A stretch of 24,000 nucleotides of DNA from Vibrio panuliri. Lineage in GTDB: Bacteria; Pseudomonadota; Gammaproteobacteria; Enterobacterales; Vibrionaceae. Shown here one piece after another: positions 757 to 17,208 of this stretch. The notes beneath the pieces are model-generated. The model did not search any database. It saw only the letters and a program-made list of their open reading frames with translations, and had not been told where the DNA came from. Position 1 is the first letter of the stretch. Each line of letters begins with the position of its first letter. The stretch is taken from positions 2,236,540-2,260,539 of the forward strand of contig NZ_AP019654.1 in the NCBI RefSeq assembly GCF_009938205.1. Direction: 5' to 3'. The translations under genes were made by a program, and so were the position numbers.

Positions 757-1341
757 CTAACTTAACTTCTTTTGCAGCCATACTTGGGCAAACTTTAAAT
801 CATTATCGACGGTACGCTTAGATACCCCCTTCAACTCAGCAATGTCCGTAATGGATGCGGTAGAAAAATGTTTTAGCTCAAACACTTCAAACTGTCGCGG
901 GTATCGGGCGCGCATTTCTTCCAAGGCGATGTAGAGATCGCGATTTAACTCGTGCTGGCTGGTGAACTCAGCGGGAATCGCCTCTTCCAGTTGGTCAAGC
1001 AGTTGTTCAGATGAGCTGAGCATCACTAAATTATGGTGCGCTTTACCAAACAATAAATGCCACACAGAAACCCGCACATATTCAAAAAAATCGCGACGAC
1101 TTTCCATTGGCACTTCATCATGTCGCCAACGGTGAAGCTTGACGATGGATTCATTCGCGAGCTCCGTTACGGAGCTTTCACGCAGCAGGGTGTCTGTTGG
1201 GCGCTGAGTTTGCATTAAGTTTGCAATGACCGCTTTAATATCATCATAAACATGATGAAATAGCTCTTGGCTTGCATCTTTGTCTCGGCTTTGCCACCCC
1301 ATCAACAGCTTTGTAGCGTGCTCGATGTCATATAGTGACAC
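757..1341 (-). CDS. ECF-type RNA polymerase sigma factor of the Ser/Thr-kinase-linked family (Sigma70_ECF-like)
   Basis: The tracked ORF is 757..1518. The C-terminus has a region 4.2 HTH (SITDIAELKGVSKRTVDNDLKFAQVWLQKKL). The N-terminal core ATKLLMGWQSRDKDASQELFHHVYDDIKAVI matches the typical start of this ECF family. I prefer the GTG at 1341, preceded by GGAGA 5 nt upstream. The residues upstream of it (CCCFLCSSSS...) look non-coding. The start is uncertain (1302, 1341 or 1518). Confidence 0.8.
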   Translation of the reverse strand: MSLYDIEHATKLLMGWQSRDKDASQELFHHVYDDIKAVIANLMQTQRPTDTLLRESSVTELANESIVKLHRWRHDEVPMESRRDFFEYVRVSVWHLLFGKAHHNLVMLSSSEQLLDQLEEAIPAEFTSQHELNRDLYIALEEMRARYPRQFEVFELKHFSTASITDIAELKGVSKRTVDNDLKFAQVWLQKKLS

Positions 1342-1584
1342 AATATTCTCCAAGGTTTCATACAAAGAAGCTATGCTACTCGACGAGCATAAAAAGCAAC
1401 AACAGCGATGTTGTGTTTTGTTAACTATTTCCGTAATTAAACCGAACCACAACAGATTGTCAGCTTGCCAATCATTGTTCATGCAATCGAGGGACGTTTT
1501 TCTCCTCATTTCGCGCACTTTGTTTCAACTTATCATTGGCGCGAGTATCCCACTCAACTGGTCGTTCACATTGAGGGAAGAGAG

Positions 1585-2346
1585 ATGCAAAAGATAATCA
1601 TCAGTGCTCTGCTTGCCTGCAGCTTTGGCGCGAGTGCCGATTACAAAAACTTTGCTTGGTCAATCAGTGATAAAGCAGGAAACCGAGTTTATGACACCAG
1701 CAATGTCATCAAGGCCGCAATTGAGCAAGACAACTTTATTTCGCTGGCTTATCACTCTCAGTTTGAAAGCGCATCTGCCGATCTCTTTCGGCAAGTAAAC
1801 ACGTTAGGTAAGTTTGAACTGGACGCGTTTGCTTCCCCTAGCCTTATCAAAGGCATTCAACAACTAGTCAATGAGTTTGCTTGTGCAACCTACCGATTTC
1901 ATGCAGGTGACGGTGAGAGCCGTCGTTGCAATGGGCTTAGTATTGATAACAAAACCAAAGAAGGTAAGCCGTTCCAAGGTGGGCAGTTCGTCGAGAATCG
2001 ACTTCAAGTGGCGATAAACAGTATTCGCTCCAATATGCCCAATCGCAGCTATGATATCTATCTGCCGAGCACTCAAGAAGTGTCGCTTGATTACACTTGG
2101 GGCGCCGTCCATGAACTGGGATCATTTTTTGTTCACCAACGAGACCGCAAAGACACGGTGCTCACTGTGTATATTGAAGGGTATAAACTCGATGCCAATG
2201 GAGAAAGGGGCGCGAAAGTTACATCACGCCCTGAAATTATCTTTGTCGTCATTCCGCGAGCATCAAACATCGGTAAGCAGGGCAGCGAAAATGCCGCTGC
2301 GTCATTTGCACGAGCGAATGCCGATATTATCGTCCCGCTATATTAG
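1585..2346 (+). CDS. Secreted or periplasmic hypothetical protein with a signal peptide
   Basis: Internal ATG at 1585 of the tracked ORF 1465..2346, preceded by GAGGGAAGAGAG. The N-terminus MQKIIISALLACSFGASA-DY is a classic Sec signal with an ASA cleavage motif. I recognise no family. It is divergent from the sigma/kinase operon. Confidence 0.6.
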   Translation: MQKIIISALLACSFGASADYKNFAWSISDKAGNRVYDTSNVIKAAIEQDNFISLAYHSQFESASADLFRQVNTLGKFELDAFASPSLIKGIQQLVNEFACATYRFHAGDGESRRCNGLSIDNKTKEGKPFQGGQFVENRLQVAINSIRSNMPNRSYDIYLPSTQEVSLDYTWGAVHELGSFFVHQRDRKDTVLTVYIEGYKLDANGERGAKVTSRPEIIFVVIPRASNIGKQGSENAAASFARANADIIVPLY

Positions 2347-3529: not shown

Positions 3530-4882
3530 ATGTCTCTTGGATTCGATTTTGGCACGGCCAATTGCTGCGTCGCCCACCTTGTTGAAGGCAAAGTGTCCCC
3601 TATCCCATTGGTCGATGACAATATCTACCTCCCCTCAACCTTGTGCGCCCCCAATGCTGAGTCTGTCTCGGAGTATTTATTTCGTTGTTTAGATATTACC
3701 CCTAGCAATGACACTAACCAAGCCGTGTTGAGACGAGCAATCAAGATCAACCGCGAAGAAGGGCTGGATATCCACGCTGACGACGTAAAATTTGGTCATC
3801 AAGCACTCAAGCTTTACCTAGAGGACCCTAAAGACGTTTACTTCGTTAAGTCACCAAAGTCCTTTCTTGGTGCGATGGGACTTAGAGACATGCAACTCTC
3901 TTATTTTGAAGATCTTGTTTGCGCAATGATGAGCAACATCAAACGCAGCGCCGAGGCCAATACTAATCAGTCGTTTGAACAAACCGTGATTGGCCGACCA
4001 GTGAACTTCTTGGGACGCGGCGGTGAAGCGTCAAATATTCAAGCCGTCGACATCTTAACTCGCGCAGCGAAACGAGCCGGGTTTAAAGATATTGAATTTC
4101 AATATGAGCCTGTCGCAGCGGGTTTGGATTTTGAAGCAACACTAACCACTGACCAAAATGTGTTAGTGGTCGATATTGGCGGTGGTACCACCGACTGCTC
4201 AATGATCCAAATGGGGCCATCGTGGCAGGGTAAAATGGAACGCAAAGAGTCACTATTGGCGCACACGGGGCAAATGGTGGGCGGTAATGATCTTGATATC
4301 TTTATTGCCTTTCGCTGCCTGATGACGGAATTTGGTCTTGGCAGCAAACTGAAGAGTGGATTGGATCTGCCGTTAATTCAATTCTGGAATGCGATTGCAA
4401 TCAATGATGTACAAGCTCAGCGCGATTTCTATGCCCACGATAACTTGTCGATGTTACGTCAGTTTCACAAAGAAGCACTTGAGCCGCAAAAACTGCAGCG
4501 TCTGGTCGCATTACATCAAGAGACTCTTGGGCATAGCGTAATTCATCAGGCGGAGTTGGCTAAAATTGCCATGTCAGAGCAAACCGACTATGTCACCAAT
4601 ATTGATTTGGTCAGTGAAGCCTTTGAAGTTGCGACCGATCGCGCCAGTATCGATGCTGCGATTGAAAACCCAATGAACAAAATTCGTGCACTCGTCCAAG
4701 AGGCGGTAACTCAAAGTGGGATTAAGCCCGATGTTATCTATATGACAGGGGGTTCTTCACGCTCAACAGCGCTGACGTCAGCCGTTGCTTCCGTGCTACC
4801 TAATACCGAAATTATCAGTGGTAACTATTTTGGTTCTGTTACCGCGGGACTGACCCACTGGGCAAATCTCATCTATCGCTAG
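3530..4882 (+). CDS. yegD: Hsp70/actin-fold ATPase, YegD-like putative chaperone
   Basis: 450 aa, the same length as E. coli YegD. Shared blocks: GFDFGTANC, VKSPKSFLGA, FEDLVCAMM, FQYEPVAAGLD, VVDIGGGTTDCS, YMTGGSSRS, FGSVTAGL. A GAGGAAA Shine-Dalgarno sits before the ATG. Confidence 0.9.
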   Translation: MSLGFDFGTANCCVAHLVEGKVSPIPLVDDNIYLPSTLCAPNAESVSEYLFRCLDITPSNDTNQAVLRRAIKINREEGLDIHADDVKFGHQALKLYLEDPKDVYFVKSPKSFLGAMGLRDMQLSYFEDLVCAMMSNIKRSAEANTNQSFEQTVIGRPVNFLGRGGEASNIQAVDILTRAAKRAGFKDIEFQYEPVAAGLDFEATLTTDQNVLVVDIGGGTTDCSMIQMGPSWQGKMERKESLLAHTGQMVGGNDLDIFIAFRCLMTEFGLGSKLKSGLDLPLIQFWNAIAINDVQAQRDFYAHDNLSMLRQFHKEALEPQKLQRLVALHQETLGHSVIHQAELAKIAMSEQTDYVTNIDLVSEAFEVATDRASIDAAIENPMNKIRALVQEAVTQSGIKPDVIYMTGGSSRSTALTSAVASVLPNTEIISGNYFGSVTAGLTHWANLIYR

Positions 4883-4971: not shown

Positions 4972-5988
4972 TTACGCCATTTCTTGTGCAGTTATGCAGG
5001 CTTTATAAGTCACACAATTTCGGTTATTACTCTTCGATTCATACAGAGCTTCGTCTGCTGCCTCAGCCAAATAACGGCGAGAAAGATCCCGATTAGGATA
5101 GATGGAGCTCACTCCTAAGCTCGCTGTTACGATGGATCTTCCCGATTCATCATTGTGAGGGATTTGCAGTTCAGCGATCACGTTTCTCACTTTTTCCGCA
5201 ACCAACTCAGCCCCCGACTGTTCGGTATCTGGTAACACAATCGCGAACTCTTCCCCACCTACTCGCGCCACTCTATCGAGTTCTCGTAGTTGCATGGTTT
5301 GTAGCGCTTTCGCGACAGTTCTTAAACAATCATCGCCAAGATGGTGACCAAAGGTGTCGTTATAAAGTTTGAAATGGTCAATATCGAGCATGATCAGCGA
5401 CAATGCCGTTCCAGCACGTGACGCTCGCTCCCACTCTTCAGCAAAGATTTGTTCAAAACGACGACGGTTGTACAAGCCAGTTAAGCTGTCTGTGGTTGAA
5501 AGCATCAACAGCTGCTCGTTGGTTTCTTCTAGTTGCTGCTGCAGTTCCTCAAGCTCTGCCAACTTTTGGTCAAACTCAATGGTCTTACGGCGCAAGGCTT
5601 CTCGCTGCTCATACAACTCAATAAACACCCTTACTTTGCCTCTAAACACCACAGGTTCAAGCGGCTTGAACATGTAATCGACTGCACCAGACTCATAACC
5701 ACGAAAAACTTGGGTTTCGTTCTTTGAACGTGCGGTAACGAAAATTATCGGAATAGTTTTGGTTTTCTTATTGCCGCGCAGCAACTCCGCGACCTCATAA
5801 CCATCCATTCCCGGCATTTGCACATCGAGTAGCACTAAAGCAAATTGATGATCCAGCGTATGTGCTAACGCTTCCTCACCGCAGCTTGCGCGCACAATAT
5901 CGACATCAAAAGACTCCAATAACACTTCTAGCGCAATCAGGTTTTCAGGACGGTCATCCACGATTAAAACACTCGGACGTTGCGTCAT
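4972..5988 (-). CDS. Response regulator-diguanylate cyclase (REC, coiled coil, GGDEF; PleD/WspR-like)
   Basis: The receiver has LIVDD...LLDVQMPGMDGY...FVTA. The GGDEF domain has DSLTGLYNRR, an active site GGEEF and an intact I-site RELD five residues upstream of GGEEF. The start overlaps the cheB stop by 4 nt. Confidence 0.9.
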   Translation of the reverse strand: MTQRPSVLIVDDRPENLIALEVLLESFDVDIVRASCGEEALAHTLDHQFALVLLDVQMPGMDGYEVAELLRGNKKTKTIPIIFVTARSKNETQVFRGYESGAVDYMFKPLEPVVFRGKVRVFIELYEQREALRRKTIEFDQKLAELEELQQQLEETNEQLLMLSTTDSLTGLYNRRRFEQIFAEEWERASRAGTALSLIMLDIDHFKLYNDTFGHHLGDDCLRTVAKALQTMQLRELDRVARVGGEEFAIVLPDTEQSGAELVAEKVRNVIAELQIPHNDESGRSIVTASLGVSSIYPNRDLSRRYLAEAADEALYESKSNNRNCVTYKACITAQEMA

Positions 5989-6596
5989 TTTTCACACTCA
6001 CATAGGCTGTTTAAAAAATCACCCATTTGCTCAATAGGAACAATATGGTCCACCTCCACAGCTTCAATAGCTGCTTGTGGCATAGCTTGCGCTTCAGCAC
6101 TTTCGATTGACTGAACCACTGCAATGCCTCCTTTTTGTTTGATTCGGGCGAGTCCTTGCGCACCATCCGAGTTTGCCCCAGTCAACACCACCCCGATTAA
6201 GTGTTGACCATAATACTGAGCTGCAGTCTCAAACAACACATCGATAGAAGGACGCGAATAGTTCACTGGAGGGTCAATAGACAAGGCAATTGATCCATCA
6301 ACTTCCACCATCATGTGATAGTTAGGTGGCGCGATATACAACGTGCCACGGCGTATCGGTTCTTTATCCTCCCCTTCCTTAACCGTAAGTTGAGAACGAT
6401 ATTCGAAGTGGGTCGCCAAATAACTTTCTACATTTGGGCTGATATGTTGCACCAACAGGATTGGTAGACAGAAGCTTGATTTTAGCTCCCGCAATACCTT
6501 TTCCATTGCCGCTAAACCACCCGCTGATGCACCAATCACAACAGCATGATATTGCTCATTACCACAGTTGATTGCCACACGACCTCCGCTACACAT
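5985..6596 (-). CDS. cheB: CheB-type glutamate methylesterase/glutamine deamidase, catalytic domain only (no receiver)
   Basis: 203 aa. Catalytic-triad contexts are present: VIGASAGG (Ser), LLVQHISP (His), LTGANSDGAQG (Asp). There is no N-terminal REC domain. It overlaps cheR by 8 nt and the GGDEF gene by 4 nt. Confidence 0.85.
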   Translation of the reverse strand: MCSGGRVAINCGNEQYHAVVIGASAGGLAAMEKVLRELKSSFCLPILLVQHISPNVESYLATHFEYRSQLTVKEGEDKEPIRRGTLYIAPPNYHMMVEVDGSIALSIDPPVNYSRPSIDVLFETAAQYYGQHLIGVVLTGANSDGAQGLARIKQKGGIAVVQSIESAEAQAMPQAAIEAVEVDHIVPIEQMGDFLNSLCECEK

Positions 6597-7437
6597 TCAA
6601 CGCTGAGCGCTTCTTGCGATAAATCTTCTCTCGTTCAGAGACCAACTCAAACTTATCGGCGACATCGGCGAAGCGCAGGCTCTCTTTGGAACCCAAACAT
6701 AAAAAACCACCTGGGACTAAGCTGTCGTAGAAAAGCTGAAACACCTTGTTTTGCAACTCTCGATTAAAGTAAATCAAAACGTTACGACAGAAGATAACAT
6801 TCATTTCGCCAAAAACACCGTCTGTGGCTAAGTTGTGCGGCGTAAACAGTACTCGCTCGCGTAAACGGCTCTGCATAATGACGTGGTCATAATCAGCAGT
6901 GTAATAGTCAGAGAAAGAGTTAATCCCCCCGGCCGCCTGATAGTTTGTGGTGTACTGACGCACCAGATCCATCGGGTAGATCCCTTTTTGCGCCTTCTCT
7001 AAAATGGCTTCATTAAAGTCCGTTGCATACAACTGTGCCCGCGAGGTCATGCCTTCTTCTTCAAGCAAGATCCCCATAGAGTAGACTTCTTGACCAGCAG
7101 AACACCCTGCATGCCAAATCTTGACGAATGGATAGGTGTGTAGATGCGGCAAAACGATCTCACGCACTTTCTTATAGAACCAAGGATCACGAAACATCTC
7201 AGTAACGTTAATCGAGAGATCCAGCAAAATCTGTTCGAAAAAGCGTGGGTCGTAAATCACCTTATGTTGCATTTGCGAATAGTTCGTCATGCCCTCTAAT
7301 GCGCGTCGATACTCTAAGCGACGGCGAGTATGCGCCACAGAGTACTCACGAAAATCGTAGCCGTACTTGCGATAAATCGCTTCTAGAAACAGTTGGATTT
7401 CCAATTGCTCGTCGTCAATGTCAATCACATCACTCAT
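6589..7437 (-). CDS. cheR: CheR-type protein-glutamate O-methyltransferase
   Basis: 282 aa. The N-terminal helical domain carries TEMFRDP. The SAM-binding fold carries IWHAGCSAGQEVYS, ATDFN and IFCRNVLIYF. The start lies 1 nt downstream of the kinase stop. Confidence 0.9.
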   Translation of the reverse strand: MSDVIDIDDEQLEIQLFLEAIYRKYGYDFREYSVAHTRRRLEYRRALEGMTNYSQMQHKVIYDPRFFEQILLDLSINVTEMFRDPWFYKKVREIVLPHLHTYPFVKIWHAGCSAGQEVYSMGILLEEEGMTSRAQLYATDFNEAILEKAQKGIYPMDLVRQYTTNYQAAGGINSFSDYYTADYDHVIMQSRLRERVLFTPHNLATDGVFGEMNVIFCRNVLIYFNRELQNKVFQLFYDSLVPGGFLCLGSKESLRFADVADKFELVSEREKIYRKKRSALNV

Positions 7438-7438
7438 A

Positions 7439-10400
7439 TCAGTACAACCACACTCTCATCATTGAAATTAGCTTGCTGGTGTCAATTGGCTTAGCCAAGT
7501 AATCACTGGCGCCTGCTTCGATGCATTTACTGCGATCTCCTTTCATGGCTTTGGCAGTTAAGGCAATAATTGGCAGTGACGCATGTTTTTTCTGTTGGCG
7601 AATAGCCTGCATCGCCTCATAACCATCCATTTTCGGCATCATGATGTCCATCAGCACCAAGTCAATATCTGGGTTGTCTTTCAGTTTATCGAGACTCTCC
7701 AATCCATCTCGGGCAATCGTGACATTCATGCCCTTATCTTCTAAGACATTGGATAGCGCGAACACATTGCGCATATCGTCATCAACCAACAAGATGTGCT
7801 TGTCTTTAAGCAAGGTTTCTTTGTCATGTACTGCTTTCAGCATGCCACGCTGCTCTGCCGGTAATGCCGATTCTACTCGATGCAGAAACAGGGCTGATTC
7901 ATCAAGCAACCGCTCTGGCGACTTCACCCCTTTGATGATGATGCTTTCTGCGTACTGGTTAAGCTCTTTTTCTTCCTCACGCGTTAATTCACGACCGGTA
8001 TAGACAATAATTGGCACTCTCGCTGCGGTTTCACTGCGGCGAATGTTCTCCAGAAGATCAAAGCCCGTCATATCTTCTAGGCCTAAATCTAAAATCATGC
8101 AGTCATAGTTATGCAGTTCGAGCTCATCCAACGCGTCTTTGCCCGTTGATACCGCGACAATATGCACATCATCTTCACCAATCAGTTGGCGGATGCTGTC
8201 GCGCTGAACTTCATCGTCTTCAACGATAAGCAAGCGTTTGACCGGTTTGGAAATGATGTTTTCAATGCTAGCAAATGCCATATCGAGTTTTTTCATATCC
8301 ACGGGTTTGGTTAGATAACCAATCGCCCCCATCCGCATCGCATCTAAATTGGCGTCATTGGCCGACATAAAGTGCACTGGAATATGACGCACCGCAGGAT
8401 TGTCTTTTAGACGTTCCATAACCGTCCAGCCATCAATACCCGGTAGACCAATGTCGAGGATAATCGCACTAGGCTTATAGTACTCAGCAAAGTGGAGACC
8501 AATTTCGCCCGTCTCAGCCACGATGCACTTAAACCCGCGTTCACGCCCAAAATCACGCATTACGCCGGCAAACGCGCGATCATCTTCAATGATCAGTAAG
8601 GTCTTATCTTCAGCGGCTATCGTTTGACGGTCATCTTCAATAAAGTTCTCGTTCTTGACCGCCATCGGTAATGGTGGCTCGACAGCTTGTGCTTCAAGCT
8701 GGTCTTGCTTAACGGCGGACATCCGCTGAGAAGGGAGTGGTGGTACTGCCGATGACTCATCTTGCTGAGGCACAATGTTGATGATCGGTTTCAGCGACAC
8801 CTCTCCAGTTGCATTCGCGCGCTCCTTACCTGAGTACTCAAGCGGCAAGACAATGGTAAAGGCACTGCCTTTACGCTCTTCACTCTTGAGCAAAATCATA
8901 CCGCCCAGTAGGTGGGTAAGCTCTTTGGAAATCGAAAGCCCCAAGCCAGTGCCGCCATACTTACGACTGGTGCTACCATCGGCTTGTTGGAATGCTTGGA
9001 AAATCGCAAGCTGCTGTTCTTCTTTGATGCCAATACCATCATCTTTAACGCGGAATGCCACCAAAGACTCTCTTGGTCTTTGCATCCGCTCTGCGGTTTC
9101 TGGCGAAGGCAGCGCAACGCTTAGTGATACCGACCCTTCGTGAGTAAACTTGAAGGCGTTGGTTAATAAGTTACGTAAGATTTGCTGTAGGCGCTGGGAG
9201 TCGGTTTCGATACTTGCCGGCAAGTTGCCCGCGATCGACACCGAGAAATCTAGCCCTTTATCCGCGGCGATATCTTTGTATAGACGATTAATATCTTGCT
9301 CAATGGTTGCAAACGGTACGTCTTCGATATGGAGATCAACCTTACCCGCCTCTACTTTGGACAAGTCCAAAATTTCATTAATAAGCGATAGCAAATCAGA
9401 TCCTGACGAGTTAATCGCTTTGGCTGACTCTATCTGTTTATCGTTGAGGTTGCCGTCTTTATTATTGGCAAACAGTTGCGACAAAATCAGGATACTGTTG
9501 AGCGGTGTACGCAACTCGTGCGACATATTGGCAAGAAACTCAGACTTGTACTTACTTGCAATCTCAAGCTCTTTCGCTTTTTCTTCAACGATTTGCTGAG
9601 CGCGATTCAACTCGCTGTTTTTCTCTTGCATCTCAAGCTTTTGGTCTTCAAGTGCTTTAGTACGCTCTTCAAGCTCTTCATTGGTGACACGCAACTCTTC
9701 TTGCTGAGCTTGCAGTTCAGCTTCGGACTCTTTAAGCACTTTCGTCTGCTCTTCAAGTTCCTCATTAGTGACACGCAACTCCTCTTGTTGAGTTTGCAGC
9801 GCACTTTCCGACTCACGCAACGCCGCGGCTTGCTCTTCAAGGTCTTTATTTGCTTGGGTCAGATTTTTTTGATCTTGTTGTGACTGTTCAAGCAACGCAC
9901 TGATCGTCTCGCGTGCGTTCGCCGCGTCAAAAATCACCGCAGCATTGGTGCAGGCTTCATTCACGTAGCGTTTTTGCAGTTTGCTAAACGGGGTTAAAGA
10001 ACCAAGCAGCACGACACCGATGAGATGAGAATCTGTCACCAATGGAATCGACATAAAGTTCGCTGGCGTTACTTCACCTGCACCATAGTTTAACGTTGGC
10101 GCGTCATGGGTGATGTCACTATAAGCGATAACCTCTTGCTCAACGGCCGCTTGGCCGACCATGCCCTCGCCTAACTCGACCAGATTGAAATTACCGCTGC
10201 GGTCACTAAAAGCGTAACTTGAGGTTAAAGCGAGAGTTTTGCTCTCTTGATCATACAAGTACAAAGCGCCCAACTCGGCACTCATATGCTTAGTGAAAAA
10301 GGTAACGAAACGCTTAGCAAGCTCAGCCAAGGTGAGATCACCACGCAACTGGTCATCTAAGCTCTCCTTGCCGACTTTGAGCCAATCAAGATCGCGTAAC

Positions 10401-11548
10401 TGAACCGCCATATCATTCAAAGCGCCAGAGAGTTGACCCAACTCATCGTTGCGTTCCAGTTTTAATGTCGAGTTGAGCTTGCCAGAAGCGATATCATTGG
10501 CAAACGCCATGCCTTGCTCCAAAGGATCGGTGACCGATTTAGCAAACTTAACTGCAACCAGACCCACCACGGCAATCAGTACTAATGCCGCCACCACTAA
10601 GCTGATATAGAGAAAATAAACAGGCTGAGTCACCTCGTATTGATCAATCTTGGAGATCATGTACCAGTTGTGACCTGGAACAGGGATCTTACTGTAAGCA
10701 ATCAAGACGTTTTTTCCTGCGCTATCGAAATAAACGTCATGCCCGCCTTTGTCTCCTGCTGCTTTCGCATCTCCCCAATATGGCGGCTCTGTGGGGAGAC
10801 GATAACCAACGACATACTGACCATTACCCATGGTAGTCACGTCACTGCGCAATTCAAACTGCCCCGTTAGTCGATTGCTGCCAATCAAATAAGACTCACC
10901 AGTTTTGCCTAGCCCAACCCGAGAGTCCAAAATATGGTTGATCAGTTCTGGTAAGATTTTTACTGCCACAATTGCATGCATTTGGTTTTGCTGATCAAAC
11001 ATTGGAGCAGCAAGATAGGAGACTTGCTTTTGCTCATGTTCGCTAAAACTAAAATCCGAAAACGCGGGCTTGCCAGTCCGCTCAACTTCCGACCAAACTC
11101 GGCTCAATGCCAAGTCAAGACTATTGTTGGAAGCCAGTCGCGTACCGAGACGTTGCTTGTCTTGATAGGAATAGAGAATTTCGCCGCGGTCTGGGCTGAG
11201 GATCAATAAGTCGCTGTAACGATAGCTTTGAACAAACTTGCCCACCAGTTGGTTGTACTCTTCATCGACCATTAGTGATTGCTTGTTTGACAAAATCTGA
11301 GAAAGATTTTTCACTTGCTCACTTTGGGCAAAAACTTCAACATCAAGAGTACGATCAAGAAAAAACTCTTCGATTTCATTGCTACGCAGCAATTGAATCG
11401 CGAGCAATTCTTCAAAGGATTTTTCAATCAAAGCATCTGAAGCGATTTTTCCGTTGAACATCGTCGCAGCTAATAGTGGTATTACGCCAAAAAACACCAA
11501 TATCGCGACAAGTTTGGTTCGGATTTTTATGTCTGAGAACTTGGGCAT
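7439..11548 (-). CDS. Hybrid sensor histidine kinase: TM, Cache-like periplasmic domain, TM, HAMP, GAF, coiled coil, HisKA, HATPase, REC, REC, REC
   Basis: The tracked ORF is 7439..11626. I prefer the ATG at 11548 (MPKFSDIKIRTKLVAILVFFGVIPLL gives a first TM segment straight away). H-box FLANMSHELRTPLNSI. G-boxes DDGIGI and GGTGLGLSISK. HAMP ends ...DELGQLSGALNDMAVQL. Three receivers: LIIEDD..ILDIGLPGIDGW, LIVEDD..ILDLGLEDMTGF, LLVDDD..LMDIMMPKMDGY..ALTAKA. Confidence 0.9.
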   Translation of the reverse strand: MPKFSDIKIRTKLVAILVFFGVIPLLAATMFNGKIASDALIEKSFEELLAIQLLRSNEIEEFFLDRTLDVEVFAQSEQVKNLSQILSNKQSLMVDEEYNQLVGKFVQSYRYSDLLILSPDRGEILYSYQDKQRLGTRLASNNSLDLALSRVWSEVERTGKPAFSDFSFSEHEQKQVSYLAAPMFDQQNQMHAIVAVKILPELINHILDSRVGLGKTGESYLIGSNRLTGQFELRSDVTTMGNGQYVVGYRLPTEPPYWGDAKAAGDKGGHDVYFDSAGKNVLIAYSKIPVPGHNWYMISKIDQYEVTQPVYFLYISLVVAALVLIAVVGLVAVKFAKSVTDPLEQGMAFANDIASGKLNSTLKLERNDELGQLSGALNDMAVQLRDLDWLKVGKESLDDQLRGDLTLAELAKRFVTFFTKHMSAELGALYLYDQESKTLALTSSYAFSDRSGNFNLVELGEGMVGQAAVEQEVIAYSDITHDAPTLNYGAGEVTPANFMSIPLVTDSHLIGVVLLGSLTPFSKLQKRYVNEACTNAAVIFDAANARETISALLEQSQQDQKNLTQANKDLEEQAAALRESESALQTQQEELRVTNEELEEQTKVLKESEAELQAQQEELRVTNEELEERTKALEDQKLEMQEKNSELNRAQQIVEEKAKELEIASKYKSEFLANMSHELRTPLNSILILSQLFANNKDGNLNDKQIESAKAINSSGSDLLSLINEILDLSKVEAGKVDLHIEDVPFATIEQDINRLYKDIAADKGLDFSVSIAGNLPASIETDSQRLQQILRNLLTNAFKFTHEGSVSLSVALPSPETAERMQRPRESLVAFRVKDDGIGIKEEQQLAIFQAFQQADGSTSRKYGGTGLGLSISKELTHLLGGMILLKSEERKGSAFTIVLPLEYSGKERANATGEVSLKPIINIVPQQDESSAVPPLPSQRMSAVKQDQLEAQAVEPPLPMAVKNENFIEDDRQTIAAEDKTLLIIEDDRAFAGVMRDFGRERGFKCIVAETGEIGLHFAEYYKPSAIILDIGLPGIDGWTVMERLKDNPAVRHIPVHFMSANDANLDAMRMGAIGYLTKPVDMKKLDMAFASIENIISKPVKRLLIVEDDEVQRDSIRQLIGEDDVHIVAVSTGKDALDELELHNYDCMILDLGLEDMTGFDLLENIRRSETAARVPIIVYTGRELTREEEKELNQYAESIIIKGVKSPERLLDESALFLHRVESALPAEQRGMLKAVHDKETLLKDKHILLVDDDMRNVFALSNVLEDKGMNVTIARDGLESLDKLKDNPDIDLVLMDIMMPKMDGYEAMQAIRQQKKHASLPIIALTAKAMKGDRSKCIEAGASDYLAKPIDTSKLISMMRVWLY
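9647..9814 (-). repeat. In-frame tandem duplication (2 x 84 bp, 2 x 28 aa) inside the kinase coiled coil
   Basis: Unit 1 (9814-9731): ESESALQTQQEELRVTNEELEEQTKVLK. Unit 2 (9730-9647): ESEAELQAQQEELRVTNEELEERTKALE. My manual nucleotide alignment gives 67 of 84 matches. Confidence 0.85.
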
Positions 11549-11929
11549 AGTCAAATAAGTTGGTTTTATTAACAATAATCTCAAATTCTTGCAAAGCAAA
11601 ACTGCAATCTCAATTACGAAACACACTCATTTTGATGTACGTCATACGAGTCACGATTAAATTGCGGCGCCAAACAAGATTTAAGGTTTGAAACGCGATA
11701 GTGACCACATTCCAACACACTGCAACTGCGAATTAAGCAAAGTAATATTTCACCAGAGAGAGTGTGCCCTCGATTTTCCACACCAAACCGCTATTTCTCC
11801 TATTGAAGCCCCTCGTTTAAACCATTGTGCGACGTGGGTTTGCGCCAATCTATTATTAAGTCGCACAGCTCTCATCTTTGCCGCTGCCATATTGATAGAA
11901 TTGAATAAATTTTAAAGATTTATCCTCAC

Positions 11930-13693
11930 ATGAGCTTAAATAAACAGCACTTTGATATTGTGACAGCACTGACCATGCAAGGGACCAGTATCAATGCCCT
12001 TGCCTCTGTTTTTAATATGACCTCGCGTAACCTTCGCTACGCGATAGAGAACATTAATTTCTATCTCGAAAAACTGGCGATGACACCGATAGAACTGACT
12101 AACGGTGAACTGCATTATCCCTATGATGCCAGCCAGTTTTTTAGTGATGTCGTTGCCAACAATTTTATCTATTCAAAACATGAACGTGAGGAATACATTG
12201 CTGTCATTGCGTTATTTTCTCCGCAAACCCTACTTAGCGATATACAACAATATTTACGTGTCAGCCGCCCAACGCTGAATAAGGATTTACGTAACATCAA
12301 TGAGATGTTCAATAACTTGGCGATTAAGCTGGAAGTTATCGAACAACAACTGCACGTCTCAGGCAAAGAGAAGCAAATCCGCTATCTACAGATGTGTTAT
12401 GCCTCCAAGTACCTATTTTGCAAAAATGAGCAGGTTCACTATCTTCAGAAACGCTATTTCTACGAGCGAGATGTTGTGGCGATCGTGCAGGGATATTTGG
12501 AGAAATATCGGCCATATTCAGCATTTTCGGCGGTGAGTCGAATTGAGCAGAATGCGAACTGCGTTCTTAGTGACGAGTTTAGAAATCTATTTACCATCTA
12601 CCTGATGGTCACATTGAGTCGCATTGAACAGGGCGTGTTAATTAACCGCAAAAATAACGGTATGTTTTTGCAGTCAACGAAAGCGTTTGGATACATTAAG
12701 CAGGCGCTTGGTTGGCAACAAGAGAGCCATCACTATGAAGCCTTGCATCTTGCGGAATACTTCCTCGGCGGTATCAATACCGATGGTTTTTACGAAAAGC
12801 GTTTTCAAGCTGAAAGTTTTATTTTCCAGCTACTCAGTGAAGTTAGCCATGACTGCGGTAAAGACTTGCTGTGTGATACAACATTACTCAACGATATCGT
12901 CAACTATCTCACCACCGCGGTCTATCGGGCGAAGAACAATCTCAACACTCAAATTGGCGCACAAAGTGCCTACTCAAAAGCCTTATTTGAACAGATAAAA
13001 GCGGTCGCTGAGCAGTATCGTCATCATTTAGTTGAACCGCTACGCAATGAAGAAATTGGCTACATTACACGGTTAGTAAATCGAACTATCGAGGTACGTA
13101 ATCAGCAGTCTGTATCACTCAAACAGTTGTTAGCCATTGCGAAGAATCATTGTCGCGAACTCAACAGTGAAGGCTTTGTCAGCCAGTTAGTGGAGCAATT
13201 GGGCGATCAAGTGATTGATGACCGAACCTTACCCGGCCTCGACGACCTACTTATTACACTTAAAGATACTTCTCAGCTAATAACCGAGACCGACTTAGTG
13301 GCCGTTTTATCTTGGCTCAGCGGTGAAATGGAGAGGTTGGGACTGGTCAATCATGAGTATAGCGGTGGAATCGTTAGCCTTTACTATGCTCGAAATCACG
13401 CTTATTTTGCTCAACATGGCTTATTGGTTTGTCACGGAAAAAGTGCCAGTCACTGCCAAGGGATTGCGATTGTGCATCTACCGTTACCAAAACCAATTAC
13501 CGATATATTCCAGCGTAATATTCGTCAAGTGATGCTGATCAGCCATATGGATAATGTCCAACATGTTCGAGCTGTGCACCAACTTCATCAAAAGCTCACC
13601 GAGCAAGGGCCATTCGCCCTAGCTACGGATAGAGAAATGCCACTTAGCAATAGGAGTACAAGTGCGCTGTCTGCCTTTCATCCAGTTGAGTAA
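11930..13693 (+). CDS. PTS-controlled transcriptional regulator, FrvR/LicR/MtlR-like (two winged HTH, PRD-like region, C-terminal EIIA(Fru/Mtl)-like domain)
   Basis: 587 aa. The N-terminus has two HTH units (TSINALASVFNMTSRNLRYAIENINFYL and LLSDIQQYLRVSRPTLNKDLRNINEMF). The helical middle is PRD-like (IYLMVTLSRIEQG, HYEALHLAEYFLGG). The C-terminus has LLVCHGKSASHCQGIAIVHLP, resembling the EIIA-2 His region. E. coli FrvR has a similar size and layout as I recall. PRD assignment by eye is the weakest part of this call. Confidence 0.7.
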   Translation: MSLNKQHFDIVTALTMQGTSINALASVFNMTSRNLRYAIENINFYLEKLAMTPIELTNGELHYPYDASQFFSDVVANNFIYSKHEREEYIAVIALFSPQTLLSDIQQYLRVSRPTLNKDLRNINEMFNNLAIKLEVIEQQLHVSGKEKQIRYLQMCYASKYLFCKNEQVHYLQKRYFYERDVVAIVQGYLEKYRPYSAFSAVSRIEQNANCVLSDEFRNLFTIYLMVTLSRIEQGVLINRKNNGMFLQSTKAFGYIKQALGWQQESHHYEALHLAEYFLGGINTDGFYEKRFQAESFIFQLLSEVSHDCGKDLLCDTTLLNDIVNYLTTAVYRAKNNLNTQIGAQSAYSKALFEQIKAVAEQYRHHLVEPLRNEEIGYITRLVNRTIEVRNQQSVSLKQLLAIAKNHCRELNSEGFVSQLVEQLGDQVIDDRTLPGLDDLLITLKDTSQLITETDLVAVLSWLSGEMERLGLVNHEYSGGIVSLYYARNHAYFAQHGLLVCHGKSASHCQGIAIVHLPLPKPITDIFQRNIRQVMLISHMDNVQHVRAVHQLHQKLTEQGPFALATDREMPLSNRSTSALSAFHPVE

Positions 13694-14693
13694 CAACGTG
13701 ACTTAGCAACTTAACGCAACTGATCGCATCATTGGGATTAACTTGGGTGTAAGCTGAGTGACAGTTGCGGACAGGCAGAATAATGGCAAGCCCCGCGATA
13801 CCGCTACCCACCAAGGTGGCTGGCCCATTGTCTGTACCGCCCCCAGCAAGAAAATCTCGTTGTACGCCGATACCAAATTCATTGGCGACATCACTGACAT
13901 AATTCAATAGCGAATAATGACCTAACGCCATCTTATCCGCGACAACCAAGCAAGGCCCTTGACCAAATAACCGCTGCGCTCCCGATTTTACTTCAAGGTG
14001 CTTTGCGGTCGCGACATCAAGCACAATGACAATATCCGGATTGAGTTGTTCGATGGCGGTTTTACCGCCTTTGGTGCCTACTTCTTCTTGCACGGTCGCC
14101 ACAAAATAGAGATCACAAGCGAGTGACTGTTTATCGAGTGAACGTAGTAGTTCAACCCCTACCCAACACCCAATGCGATCATCCATCGCTTTACCGATCA
14201 TCACACCACTGTTATTTAATTCAAAATGGCGAGTCGCAAACACGGCACTGTCGCCAATTTGAATCCCCATAGTGATGACTTCTTCGCGACTACACGCACC
14301 AACATCAAGCCATAAATCATCAATGCTCAACTCAGCCAATGGTTTATCTGTCCAAATCAGACCAGTAAACTTATTGCCACAACGCGTTTTAACTTCAATC
14401 TCACTATTTACTGCCACTTTAGGGTCAATTCCCCCCAACTTGAACAGTTTAAGCAGACCATCATTACGAATTTCTCTGATCAGGAAGCCAACTTCATCCA
14501 TATGTGCAACCACTGCAACTTTGGGACCAGTGGCATGACGATTAAAGCGTGCAATCAAGCTACCGAGCCCATCAAAGCTAATGTCATCAACAATGGGGTT
14601 AAGCACTCCACTTAATATTTGGCGAACCTCATCTTCGCGACCTGATGGGCCATGGGCATTGTTCAACTCGACCAACAAACTAAAGTCTTTCAT
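13644..14693 (-). CDS. M42 family metallo-aminopeptidase (FrvX/YpdE/SgcX-like; often mislabelled endoglucanase)
   Basis: 349 aa. Metal-ligand contexts are present: VVAHMDEVGF, KAMDDRIG, TVQEEVG, VIVLDV, VRNCHS. It starts 5 nt after the M24 gene stop. Confidence 0.85.
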   Translation of the reverse strand: MKDFSLLVELNNAHGPSGREDEVRQILSGVLNPIVDDISFDGLGSLIARFNRHATGPKVAVVAHMDEVGFLIREIRNDGLLKLFKLGGIDPKVAVNSEIEVKTRCGNKFTGLIWTDKPLAELSIDDLWLDVGACSREEVITMGIQIGDSAVFATRHFELNNSGVMIGKAMDDRIGCWVGVELLRSLDKQSLACDLYFVATVQEEVGTKGGKTAIEQLNPDIVIVLDVATAKHLEVKSGAQRLFGQGPCLVVADKMALGHYSLLNYVSDVANEFGIGVQRDFLAGGGTDNGPATLVGSGIAGLAIILPVRNCHSAYTQVNPNDAISCVKLLSHVVTQLDERQTAHLYSYC

Positions 14694-14698
14694 TATTG

Positions 14699-15787
14699 TT
14701 ACTCCTGACGGTTCTTGACCATATCTGCTACTTCAAAAATATTGCGTAGCTGTCTCGGTAATTTGGTGAGGCTCTCACAGCCACTTGGCGTAATGACTAA
14801 GGTATCCTCCACTCGCGCCCCGCCTAATCCACTTAGGTAAACGCCAGGTTCAACCGTCACCACCATACCCACTTCCAACGTCGCCAAACTGTCGGGGGTC
14901 AGCAGTGGATACTCATGCCCTTGCAACCCAACACCATGCCCCAAGCCATGGCAAAATGCTTCGCCATAGCCCAATGAGCCGAGATACTCTCTCACAGTGT
15001 GATCCACGCGATTTGCCGCAATACCTGGCGCAAGCATCTCAACACCCAGTTTTTGTGCGCAGTAAACGGCGTCAAACAGCTGTTGCAACTGCGGTGCGAC
15101 TTCACCGGTACAGAACGTTCTGGTGACATCCGAATGATAGCCTTGGTACACCACACCAAAATCTATGGTAACCAGTTCATTACGCCCAATAATTCGCTCA
15201 GAGGGTCGTCCGTGAGGCAATGCACCTCGCTCCCCCGAGACCACAATTAAAAAATCGATACTTTCTGCACCAAGCATACGAGCGTAGAACTCAAGGTGCG
15301 CAGCTAGCTCACGCTCACTCATCCCAAACCGGAAATGAGCGAGCCCTTGCTCAATAGCCGCTTCAGTGATTTCACAGGCCTTGCGAATCAAGGCGATTTC
15401 CGGTGCTGATTTCCAGCGTCGTGATGGGGTGACAACATGGTCTGTTGCCACCAATTGTTGTGATAATGCCTGCGTAAGCTGCATTACTTGCTGATAACTT
15501 AGCGCATGAGCTTCGAAACCGAGTCGCTCAATCGAATGGACATCCAAACGTTGTTGCAGAACATTCAACCAGCCATCTTGATCAGTACAGAATCTCTGGC
15601 ATTGGGGACTTTGCTCGGCAACTTGCTGCCAATATTTTCCCGCCACCAGCAACTCACTGCCCGAGGGCGTCAGCAATAGATACCCTCCACTGCCCGTGAA
15701 GCCACTTAAATAGCGCTTGTGGTGCGTATCACTAACCAGTAAAGCATCAAACTCTTGCTGATAAGGCGCTAGGCTAAATGTCTGCAT
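14699..15787 (-). CDS. M24B Xaa-Pro aminopeptidase/dipeptidase (YpdF/PepQ-like)
   Basis: The tracked ORF 14699..15799 begins at a GTG. An ATG at 15787 has GGAA 7 nt upstream. Pita-bread fold ligand contexts: IDFGVVYQGYHSDVTRT, HGLGHGVGL, VTVEPGVY, GARVEDT. Confidence 0.85.
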   Translation of the reverse strand: MQTFSLAPYQQEFDALLVSDTHHKRYLSGFTGSGGYLLLTPSGSELLVAGKYWQQVAEQSPQCQRFCTDQDGWLNVLQQRLDVHSIERLGFEAHALSYQQVMQLTQALSQQLVATDHVVTPSRRWKSAPEIALIRKACEITEAAIEQGLAHFRFGMSERELAAHLEFYARMLGAESIDFLIVVSGERGALPHGRPSERIIGRNELVTIDFGVVYQGYHSDVTRTFCTGEVAPQLQQLFDAVYCAQKLGVEMLAPGIAANRVDHTVREYLGSLGYGEAFCHGLGHGVGLQGHEYPLLTPDSLATLEVGMVVTVEPGVYLSGLGGARVEDTLVITPSGCESLTKLPRQLRNIFEVADMVKNRQE

Positions 15788-15833
15788 ATTGATTTCCACT
15801 CAATTGATACTCTTCGTTACTCTGCGCTTGGCG

Positions 15834-17177
15834 TTAGAAGTCCAGCCCGAGCTCATCCAGCAGCTCATCATCTTTCTTACTGAACACCGATTTCTTCTCT
15901 TGCTCAGCTTTTAGCGCGGCCTCTCTTGCCATCTCTTGTCTATCCATAATTCTGAAGAATGGGTAGTAGACGAAGAATGAAGCGACAATTTGCAGTGCTT
16001 GAACGAATGGTGTTTTCCAGTCAAAGCTTGTTAAGTAACCTTCAAAGAACAAAGGCAGATACGGGGGATCAAAGAACGGTTTGGCTAAGAAACCATATTT
16101 CATCAGTACCAGTGGGAATATACCGATTAGCGAGCCACCCAATACAAACGGAATAAACAGAATCGGGTTTAAGATAATAGGCGCACCAAACAATACTGGC
16201 TCATTAATGCCAAACAAACTTGGCACTAGAGATACTTGACCAACTTTACGATAACGTTGAGTTTTGGCAATCATCATCGCAATAACTAAGCCTAAGGTAA
16301 CCCCTGACCCAGTGAAGTTAACAAATGCTGAGAATGTACCGCCAGTAACGAAGTGAGCAAGCTCTACCCCAGCCGTTTTCGCAGCGATGTTCTCCGATAG
16401 ATATTGGACAAAAATCGGCGATAGAATTGGGCTAAGCACGGCCGAGTGGATACCAAAGAACCAGAACAACAGACGCAACATAATGACAAACCAGACCACC
16501 CACAGATTGTCTAAGCTGCCAACCACAGGCGCCAGTACCTGCATTAAGATCTCTGGTAGCAGCAAGCCACCGGTCCATTGAGCAATAAAGTAACGGGCAG
16601 AAACAAACAGAACGGCGATAAAAGCAGTCGGAGTGATTAATTCGAATGAGCTTGAAACGAAATCAGGCACACCTTCTGGCATTCTGATCACCAGCCTCTT
16701 TTCGGTAAAGAATCGATAGATCTCAACACTGGCAATCGCGACAAATATGGCGGTAAATAAGCCTTTTGAATCAAAGAAGCGAATATCAAGTGAGCCATCA
16801 GGATTCACTGAGGTGGTCATGATCAAATAAGCAAAAAGGGATAGGGCCACCGCACCAACTGTGTATATTTTGTAGCCTTCACTTAGAAAATAAGCGATTG
16901 CTATCACAGTGTAAATGGCGATAAAACCGAGTGAAAATTTAATTAAAAGATCGATAAGATAAGTGTTATTAATAAACCACTCTTGCACCGCAGCCGAATC
17001 AGAAAATACGTTTTTAAGTGCTTTTAATGGATAAGCCATCGAGCCGAGCAATAGGATTGGCGTTAATACAACCATGCCTTTTTTCACAGCACTAAGATGG
17101 ACTTGCTTATCTATTTTTTCTGCTATTGGCAGTAATATACTGCTGAGCAGCTTTTCAAAAGATGCGAATAGGCTCAT
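15834..17177 (-). CDS. PTS EIIC permease, lactose/cellobiose (Lac/Chb) family
   Basis: The tracked ORF is 15834..17192. I prefer the ATG at 17177, which has AAGG 8 nt upstream. It is polytopic and carries family motifs (FWFFGIHS, SLFGINEPVLFGAPIILNP). Confidence 0.9.
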   Translation of the reverse strand: MSLFASFEKLLSSILLPIAEKIDKQVHLSAVKKGMVVLTPILLLGSMAYPLKALKNVFSDSAAVQEWFINNTYLIDLLIKFSLGFIAIYTVIAIAYFLSEGYKIYTVGAVALSLFAYLIMTTSVNPDGSLDIRFFDSKGLFTAIFVAIASVEIYRFFTEKRLVIRMPEGVPDFVSSSFELITPTAFIAVLFVSARYFIAQWTGGLLLPEILMQVLAPVVGSLDNLWVVWFVIMLRLLFWFFGIHSAVLSPILSPIFVQYLSENIAAKTAGVELAHFVTGGTFSAFVNFTGSGVTLGLVIAMMIAKTQRYRKVGQVSLVPSLFGINEPVLFGAPIILNPILFIPFVLGGSLIGIFPLVLMKYGFLAKPFFDPPYLPLFFEGYLTSFDWKTPFVQALQIVASFFVYYPFFRIMDRQEMAREAALKAEQEKKSVFSKKDDELLDELGLDF

Positions 17178-17208
17178 ATACGTAACCTTCATTCATTATT
17201 ATAGGTAA

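Follow-up and report, generated by a model that had tools for sequence, protein, structure and literature searches.

The 24,000-nucleotide stretch of Vibrio panuliri DNA analyzed here (NZ_AP019654.1, positions 2,236,540 to 2,260,539; hereafter the window) carries on its minus strand four tightly packed genes, encoding a hybrid sensor histidine kinase, a CheR-type methyltransferase, a CheB-type methylesterase and a REC-GGDEF response regulator (Table 1). Between the GAF domain of the kinase and its phosphorylated histidine lies a helical segment, the stalk, composed of 28-residue units that include two tandem copies with pairs of glutamates at heptad spacing; this segment is probably a stalk of the methyl-accepting coiled-coil (MAC) kind, which would place the hybrid histidine kinase in the MAC2 class. 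Kinase residues are numbered as amino acids of the open reading frame (ORF), counted from its start at 11626. The identical locus is present in the NCBI assemblies GCA_054783715.1 and GCA_008830195.1, and the public gene calls for it give the kinase 1369 residues in two of three records and 1340 in the third; the likely start is Met27 (11548), in agreement with the majority of calls.

Table 1. Features of the kinase gene and of the three genes that follow it, in window coordinates.
Feature	Position	Strand	Size or residues	Basis and remarks
Hybrid sensor histidine kinase	7439..11548	-	1369 aa from Met27	ORF list, Pfam; ORF open to 11626
HAMP	10391..10543	-		Pfam PF00672, E=1.3e-7
GAF	9929..10336	-	aa 431-566	Pfam GAF_2, E=4.9e-13
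Continuous predicted alpha-helix	9464..9982	-	aa 549-721	AlphaFold2
Unit 0, decayed	9815..9898	-	aa 577-604	ALLEQSQQDQKNLTQANKDLEEQAAALR; heptad table, self-similarity
Unit 1	9731..9814	-		ESESALQTQQEELRVTNEELEEQTKVLK; candidate acceptor pairs E615/E616 (9779..9784) and E622/E623 (9758..9763)
Unit 2	9647..9730	-		ESEAELQAQQEELRVTNEELEERTKALE; candidate acceptor pairs E643/E644 (9695..9700) and E650/E651 (9674..9679)
Unit 3, degenerate	9563..9646	-	aa 661-688	DQKLEMQEKNSELNRAQQIVEEKAKELE; heptad table, homologue spacing
HisKA (DHp)	9344..9547	-	aa 694-761	Pfam, E=3.3e-17; family-specific SKYKSEFLANMSHELRTP box
HATPase_c	8837..9202	-		Pfam, E=7e-26
Three REC domains	7457..8602	-		Pfam Response_reg, three stretches, E=1.6e-68
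CheR-type protein-glutamate O-methyltransferase	6589..7437	-	282 aa	Pfam CheR_N + CheR, E=2e-40
CheB methylesterase domain only	5985..6596	-	203 aa	Pfam CheB_methylest, E=5e-59
REC-GGDEF response regulator	4972..5988	-	338 aa	Pfam Response_reg + GGDEF, E=2.6e-49

An earlier note, made from the sequence alone, had described two consecutive 84-bp units about four fifths identical, each carrying QQEEL and NEELEE with the EE pairs seven residues apart on one face of a coiled coil, and had placed them between the GAF domain and the H-box; all of this is borne out. The reverse complement of 9647..9814 encodes ESESALQTQQEELRVTNEELEEQTKVLK followed directly by ESEAELQAQQEELRVTNEELEERTKALE, and the two 84-nt units are identical at 67 of 84 nucleotides (79.8%) and at 22 of 28 residues, with seven of the 13 differing codons synonymous. 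Tandem Repeats Finder lists the repeat at 9664..9841 (period 84, copy number 2.1, 76% matches). When every in-frame lag from 21 to 600 nt was scanned over the whole kinase gene, the top 84-nt self-match was 67/84 at lag 84 and the runner-up reached 46; codon shuffling of the gene, repeated 200 times, gave maxima with a mean of 41.7 and never above 46/84, and the duplication is therefore far beyond chance.

The two copies are bordered by a decayed unit on one side and a degenerate one on the other. Unit 0, directly upstream of unit 1, retains the Leu/Asn skeleton with KN and KD in place of the pairs, and its self-similarity at lag 168 is 45/84; at the equivalent place the closest homologue, P0001, has QQEELRVANEELEEQ, with EE/EE. 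Unit 3 forms a spacer of nearly fixed length to the H-box, a few homologues having indels of 7 or 21 residues there, and includes the conserved K669/N670 (KN-x-EL).

From the N terminus, the kinase consists of a first transmembrane segment, a periplasmic region, a second transmembrane segment (a hydrophobic stretch at residues 336-359), HAMP, GAF, the stalk, HisKA, HATPase and three REC domains, in which the motifs of the acidic pocket, the phospho-acceptor Asp, the Thr/Ser and the Lys were recognized by eye from the sequence. The phospho-acceptor is His703 (9518..9520), within the SKYKSEFLANMSHELRTP box, whose columns are invariant in the homologues. An AlphaFold2 model of residues 540-940, built on 42 sequences and with a mean predicted local distance difference test (pLDDT) score of 85.3, shows a single helix running from the end of the GAF domain through the stalk into helix 1 of the dimerization and histidine phosphotransfer (DHp) domain, which carries His703; the helix spans model residues 10-182, with block pLDDT values of 71-95. 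Since the model is of a monomer, it supports the continuity of the helix and is silent on dimer packing. A heptad register runs unbroken from I575 to L687, with Leu, Ile, Val or Met at every seventh residue; within the units every d position is Leu and the a positions are polar, cycling through Gln, Asn, Thr and Glu. All four EE pairs of units 1 and 2 occupy the exposed b and c positions, and further pairs, E625/626 and E653/654, occupy e and f. The pairs are therefore not buried on the a/d core, the placement that the earlier note had named as counting against modification. The conserved Gln residues of the stalk fall at g and a, and with EE as the acceptor pairs nothing specific favors deamidation.

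No family in Pfam or NCBIfam covers the stalk, where only spurious coiled-coil matches (CALCOCO1, ATG16) were returned, below cut-off. Three families, PF28159, PF28019 and PF27881, are annotated on many homologues (P0024, P0027, P0031 and P0084 among them) and absent from our local Pfam scan of the window protein; they may be more recent entries that include the stalk. The periplasmic region of about 280 residues (residues ~60-335; ~10540..11450, minus strand) likewise had no Pfam match at E<=0.01, and may be a diverged Cache-type sensor, as the homologue P0012 has a dCache_1 domain.

A search with the GAF, stalk and HisKA portions of the kinase as query returned thousands of matches, and in most of the best 120 the invariant SKYKSEFLANMSHELRTP box is preceded by one or more QQEELxxxNEELEE units or close variants. 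Scored in 38 non-redundant homologues, the glutamates of unit 2 are retained in 37 (E644), 33 (E651), 30 (E643) and 29 (E650) sequences, about as well as the core Leu and Asn, with other b, c and f positions nearby varying at entropies of 2.8-3.6 bits. Such retention at exposed b/c positions goes further than packing would require and points to a partner or an enzyme that recognizes them. An 89-residue stalk-only query, run against 1.84 billion representative proteins, matched 951 representative clusters with E<=1e-3, of which 142 reach E<=1e-10. Complete EE/EE units number zero, one, two and three in 3, 38, 70 and 13 of 124 full-length representatives, respectively, and the step from one unit to the next is 28 residues in 90 of the 96 spacings. 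The pattern that the earlier note had suggested looking for, EE positions kept as copy number varies, is thus seen, the pairs being near-invariant and the units mostly one to three in number.

The three genes downstream of the kinase are packed closely behind it. The cheR start lies 1 nt past the kinase stop codon, cheB (with the 203-residue start) overlaps cheR by 8 nt, and the REC-GGDEF gene overlaps cheB by 4 nt (ATGA); an alternative cheB start, giving 197 residues, is used in two of three public gene calls. Both enzymes appear catalytically intact by alignment, CheR against PDB 5FTW in its SAM-binding (S-adenosylmethionine) motifs AGCSxGxExYS, ATD and CRNVxIYF, and CheB against PDB 3SFT in its triad of GASxGG Ser, VQH His and SDG Asp. 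Neither reaches the corresponding NCBIfam cut-off, CheR scoring 83 bits against an equivalog cut-off of 435 and CheB 164 against 293, the latter covering only profile positions 167-353; Pfam finds no receiver domain in the CheB protein (5985..6596). CheB ORFs in the related loci are likewise short. The REC-GGDEF protein is presumed to be the output of the kinase.

We compared genomic neighborhoods at 80 related loci from many phyla, which had been picked for resembling a query that bears the motif. At 26 of them a same-strand cheR comes directly after the kinase gene, and in most cases a cheB lacking a REC domain comes next; an exception is a Nostoc locus (L038), where a convergent ORF encoding fused CheB and CheR takes the place of the downstream cheR. 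Any CheR match at all was found at 27 loci; L066, whose H-box ORF could not be parsed, was left unscored for the motif. Of the 26 scored cheR-linked kinases, 18 have one or more complete EE/EE units, compared with 4 of 47 that have adequate downstream sequence and lack cheR within 10 kb (Fisher's test, p=1e-7, with no correction for phylogeny). Among clusters at 70% identity the corresponding figures are 16 of 20 and 2 of 9. The kinases without cheR (from Streptomyces, Acidobacteria and others) retain the Leu/Asn skeleton and the spacer with the pairs substituted, as in RQKALQASNAEL and QQKELQQTNEQL. The same division is seen within a single subfamily of giant poly-HAMP kinases, whose cheR-linked members (L014, L073, L078) retain QQEELQQ[TV]NEELEE and whose cheR-less members (L006, L015, L020, L036, L065) have substituted pairs. 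The expected tie between EE/EE units and a neighboring cheR is therefore borne out as an enrichment.

Taken with the anatomy of the stalk, the operon and the conservation of the exposed pairs, this statistical link to cheR is the basis of the mechanism that we propose. Modification of the EE pairs by methylation is itself somewhat favored, and a slightly better than even chance attaches to the fuller reading, in which the pairs are genuine, reversibly methylated sites, a HisKA-type kinase has a chemotaxis-style adaptation module, the number of units (one to three) sets its dynamic range, and the REC-GGDEF protein drives c-di-GMP (cyclic di-GMP) synthesis directly. The kinase would dimerize through the stalk as a parallel coiled coil of marginal stability, its core being polar and its surface strongly acidic. 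CheR would place methyl groups from SAM on the exposed Glu pairs and CheB would remove them, and the resulting neutralization of charge would alter the stability or register of the stalk, shifting the balance between the on and off (kinase and phosphatase) states of the DHp and catalytic module. A slow, reversible gain control, serving as adaptation or memory, would thereby be added to the signal arriving through the periplasmic, HAMP and GAF domains, and the output would pass by phosphotransfer to the REC-GGDEF protein, leading to c-di-GMP synthesis. Gain or loss of units in 28-residue steps, exactly four heptads, would change the number of sites and preserve the phase between sensor and kinase.

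Several observations weigh against this account. The coupling of cheR to EE pairs is a tendency and no rule: four cheR-less kinases, one of them from Kitasatospora (L017), keep a full EE/EE unit, eight of the 26 cheR-linked kinases lack a complete one, and the association is confounded by shared ancestry and by the choice of loci. In the kinase Pfam finds no match to MCPsignal (PF00015) at E<=0.01, and the 10-residue methylation consensus known from methyl-accepting chemotaxis proteins (MCPs), [ASTG][ASTG]xx[EQ][EQ]xx[ASTG][ASTG], is absent both from it and from the stalks of 26 cheR-linked homologues; the looser EExxx[AST] pattern occurs twice in the kinase, as EELRVT. No HPt domain was found that would link the REC domains of the kinase to the REC-GGDEF protein. 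A CheB without a receiver makes the classical phospho-feedback on CheB impossible, and any feedback would have to work through conformation-dependent differences in how CheR and CheB reach the stalk. In the literature searched, no biochemical evidence turned up that CheR methylates a histidine kinase, a MAC2 protein or CfcA of Pseudomonas putida. Finally, in the P. putida cfc cluster, discussed below, cfc mutants other than that in the kinase gene, including those in the CheB/CheR pair, keep the crinkly phenotype according to an unpublished remark by the authors (PMC4951495).

One alternative is that the stalk is purely a structural and signaling coiled coil which CheR and CheB do not modify. 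An acidic zipper with a polar core might have just the marginal stability needed for signaling from GAF to DHp, or its acidic face might dock another domain, for example a REC domain. Persistence of the Leu/Asn skeleton and of the fixed H-box spacer in Streptomyces and Acidobacteria loci with no cheR within 10 kb speaks for such a role, as do the full units of the four cheR-less kinases, and the missing MCP consensus, the lack of methylation data in the literature searched and the P. putida cheB and cheR mutants without a phenotype in that one reported assay (PMC4951495) agree with it. It accounts poorly for the pairs themselves: the b and c positions of a dimeric coiled coil are normally free to vary, whereas here they are conserved like the core, and where cheR is absent it is specifically the EE pairs that decay while the skeleton stays. 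Nor would it lead one to expect NEEL heptads to recur where CheB and CheR are fused to a kinase, or cheR to follow the kinase stop codon so closely here and to lie directly downstream, on the same strand, at 26 of 80 loci spread over many phyla. We consider a purely structural role unlikely, albeit the most serious of the competitors to methylation.

A second alternative, that CheR and CheB act on other substrates (chemoreceptors encoded elsewhere, or another site in the kinase or regulator) and that their linkage to the kinase reflects co-regulation only, is improbable. By Pfam the two are generic MCP-modifying enzymes, and most species with MAC systems (about 80%) also have ordinary chemotaxis systems, as quoted in a 2022 preprint (bioRxiv 10.1101/2022.05.07.491037). 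Against this, the 24-kb window holds no ORF of MCP size (about 500 residues or more) besides the kinase and an Mga/PRD-domain regulator, and no MCP, CheA or CheW domain was found in its Pfam-scanned ORFs, six shorter ORFs being left unscanned. CheR, moreover, scores far under its chemotaxis equivalog cut-off, CheB lacks the receiver that would couple it to CheA, the order kinase-cheR-cheB is conserved across many phyla, and a chemotaxis role is excluded for the P. putida homologues in PMC4951495 (citing Garcia-Fontana 2013). That the units are a recent neutral slippage duplication without a function of their own, as their tandem, in-frame arrangement and 80% identity at the DNA level might suggest, is highly improbable and was rejected as contradicted by the comparative data, since over half of the differing codons are synonymous, the family consensus is retained in both copies, and two or three units are usual in distant homologues from many phyla, so that the arrangement must be old and under purifying selection.

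Methylation of the stalk, if it occurs, would extend adaptation by reversible glutamate methylation beyond chemoreceptor arrays and, given the 951 representative clusters that match the stalk, ordinary histidine kinases in many phyla would be tuned in the same way. As a test case the locus is compact: its four genes lie close together, its candidate Glu pairs are clean and number four, and its presumed output, c-di-GMP, is easily measured. The comparative points contributed here are the b/c register of the pairs, their core-like conservation, the 28-residue steps and the decay of the pairs where cheR is missing; the paper of 2010 that introduced the MAC class may already contain part of this.

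A local twist concerns the fourth gene. At ten of ten other cheR/cheB-linked loci scanned (L014, L029, L032, L048, L067, L069, L070, L076, L077, L078), the gene after cheB encodes a REC-(PAS)-HisKA-HATPase(-REC) protein, in contrast to the REC-GGDEF protein of the window, and the notion of GGDEF as the usual partner of such clusters was accordingly rejected. These ten REC-kinases closely resemble the window REC-GGDEF protein at the N terminus of REC (VDDRPENL...LDVQMP), and the latter looks like an output-domain swap, judging from the sequences, that would feed c-di-GMP directly in this lineage.

Beyond the operon, a gene for an Hsp70/MreB-like protein (an actin-fold ATPase) of 450 residues (3530..4882, plus strand) lies just past the REC-GGDEF end of the operon, with which it is convergent, and its placement is conserved in each of the three publicly available copies of the locus. 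The Mga/PRD-domain regulator (11930..13693, plus strand), two minus-strand ORFs judged by eye from their sequence to be putative peptidases (13644..14693 and 14699..15799) and a gene for EIIC of the phosphotransferase system (PTS; 15834..17192, minus strand) follow on the far side of the kinase, and 11930..17192 looks like an uptake cluster linked to the PTS and without relation to the stalk. An extracytoplasmic function (ECF) sigma factor gene (757..1518, minus strand) is overlapped by an opposite-strand ORF of 293 residues (1465..2346, plus strand) without a Pfam match.

The idea of a methyl-accepting stalk in a histidine kinase is not new, and the kinase described here is a further case of a class predicted since 2010. 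The MAC class was introduced by Wuichet & Zhulin 2010 (Sci Signal 3:ra50), as cited in PMC6943060 and bioRxiv 10.1101/2022.05.07.491037; the same two sources state that MAC1 proteins incorporate CheB and CheR and that MAC2 proteins associate with them. Profile hidden Markov models for both are included in MiST3 (PMC6943060). The preprint calls these proteins experimentally uncharacterized, and the figure of about 80% of MAC-bearing species having ordinary chemotaxis systems is quoted there from Wuichet & Zhulin (bioRxiv 10.1101/2022.05.07.491037). On the strength of the published description and of the architecture, the window kinase very probably belongs to the MAC2 kind. Like MAC2 proteins it unites receptor and histidine-kinase functions in one protein of 1369 residues (transmembrane, periplasmic, HAMP, GAF, HisKA and HATPase), has cheR and cheB as separate neighboring genes with no CheA or CheW in the scanned ORFs, and contains a coiled coil with candidate methyl-accepting Glu pairs, as seen in the heptad register, the AlphaFold2 helix and the conservation.

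MAC1 proteins are CheB-CheR-coiled coil-PAS-HisKA-HATPase fusions, annotated as 'two-component system CheB/CheR fusion protein', and a MAC1-like ORF with a C-terminal REC domain is found in the Nostoc locus L038 (12984-17255, minus strand), convergent with a giant stalk-bearing kinase (5804-12289, plus strand) that the MAC1 enzyme might serve. Its linker consists of seven tandem 7-residue heptads of the NEEL type (...RAANEEILSSNEELQSTNEELETAKEEIQATNEELNTINDEL...), and the statement in the earlier note that NEEL repeats are typical of fused CheB-CheR-PAS kinases is upheld by this ORF. MAC1 proteins thus share with the window kinase a Glu-rich heptad stalk with N-E-E-L ahead of the sensor or kinase part; they differ in that CheB and CheR form one polypeptide with their substrate, each repeat measures 7 residues and not 14 or 28, and the stalk leads to a PAS domain, whereas that of the window runs straight into the DHp helix.

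The closest studied relative is CfcA of P. putida (PP_3761), described as a CHASE3/GAF hybrid kinase, whose gene comes first in the cfcABCDE cluster; a CheB/CheR pair is also encoded there (PMC4951495). According to two reports, CfcA is needed for the diguanylate-cyclase activity of the REC-GGDEF-EAL regulator CfcR (PMC4951495; PMC6849547), and the former states that a chemotaxis role for the cfc CheB/CheR pair has been ruled out (citing Garcia-Fontana 2013). In both systems a hybrid kinase heads a CheB/CheR-containing cluster, and CfcA is required for a regulator of the REC-GGDEF type; CfcR, however, is encoded elsewhere in the genome and has an EAL domain, whereas the REC-GGDEF gene of the window is in the operon, and the sensor of CfcA is CHASE3, whereas that of the window kinase matches no Pfam family. 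The order kinase-cheR-cheB recurs at a locus of Pseudomonas viridiflava (L072), which also has a QQEELRTANEELEEQ unit.

In MCPs such as Tar and Tsr, the methylated Glu pairs are exposed at heptad spacing, each preceding a core Leu, with a small residue at +4 (EELxx[TSA]), and are served by CheR and CheB. The window stalk resembles these methylation helices in its exposed, heptad-spaced Glu pairs, in the EELxx[TSA] pattern and in its associated CheR and CheB enzymes, and by analogy it may work like one of them. It differs in having one helix per chain, presumably in a two-helix parallel coiled coil and not an antiparallel four-helix bundle, and in lacking the CheA/CheW-binding hairpin tip and the C-terminal pentapeptide. 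Assignment of the stalk as an MCP signaling domain was rejected, given the missing MCPsignal match, the missing consensus and the single helix in the AlphaFold2 model. In its proposed logic the locus would resemble the Wsp system (WspA-WspE-WspR, with WspC and WspF), in which a REC-GGDEF diguanylate cyclase is driven by sensory input that a CheR/CheB pair tunes. In Wsp the MCP, the CheW proteins and the CheA-type kinase are separate, whereas here all three would be collapsed into one hybrid kinase of the HisKA type.

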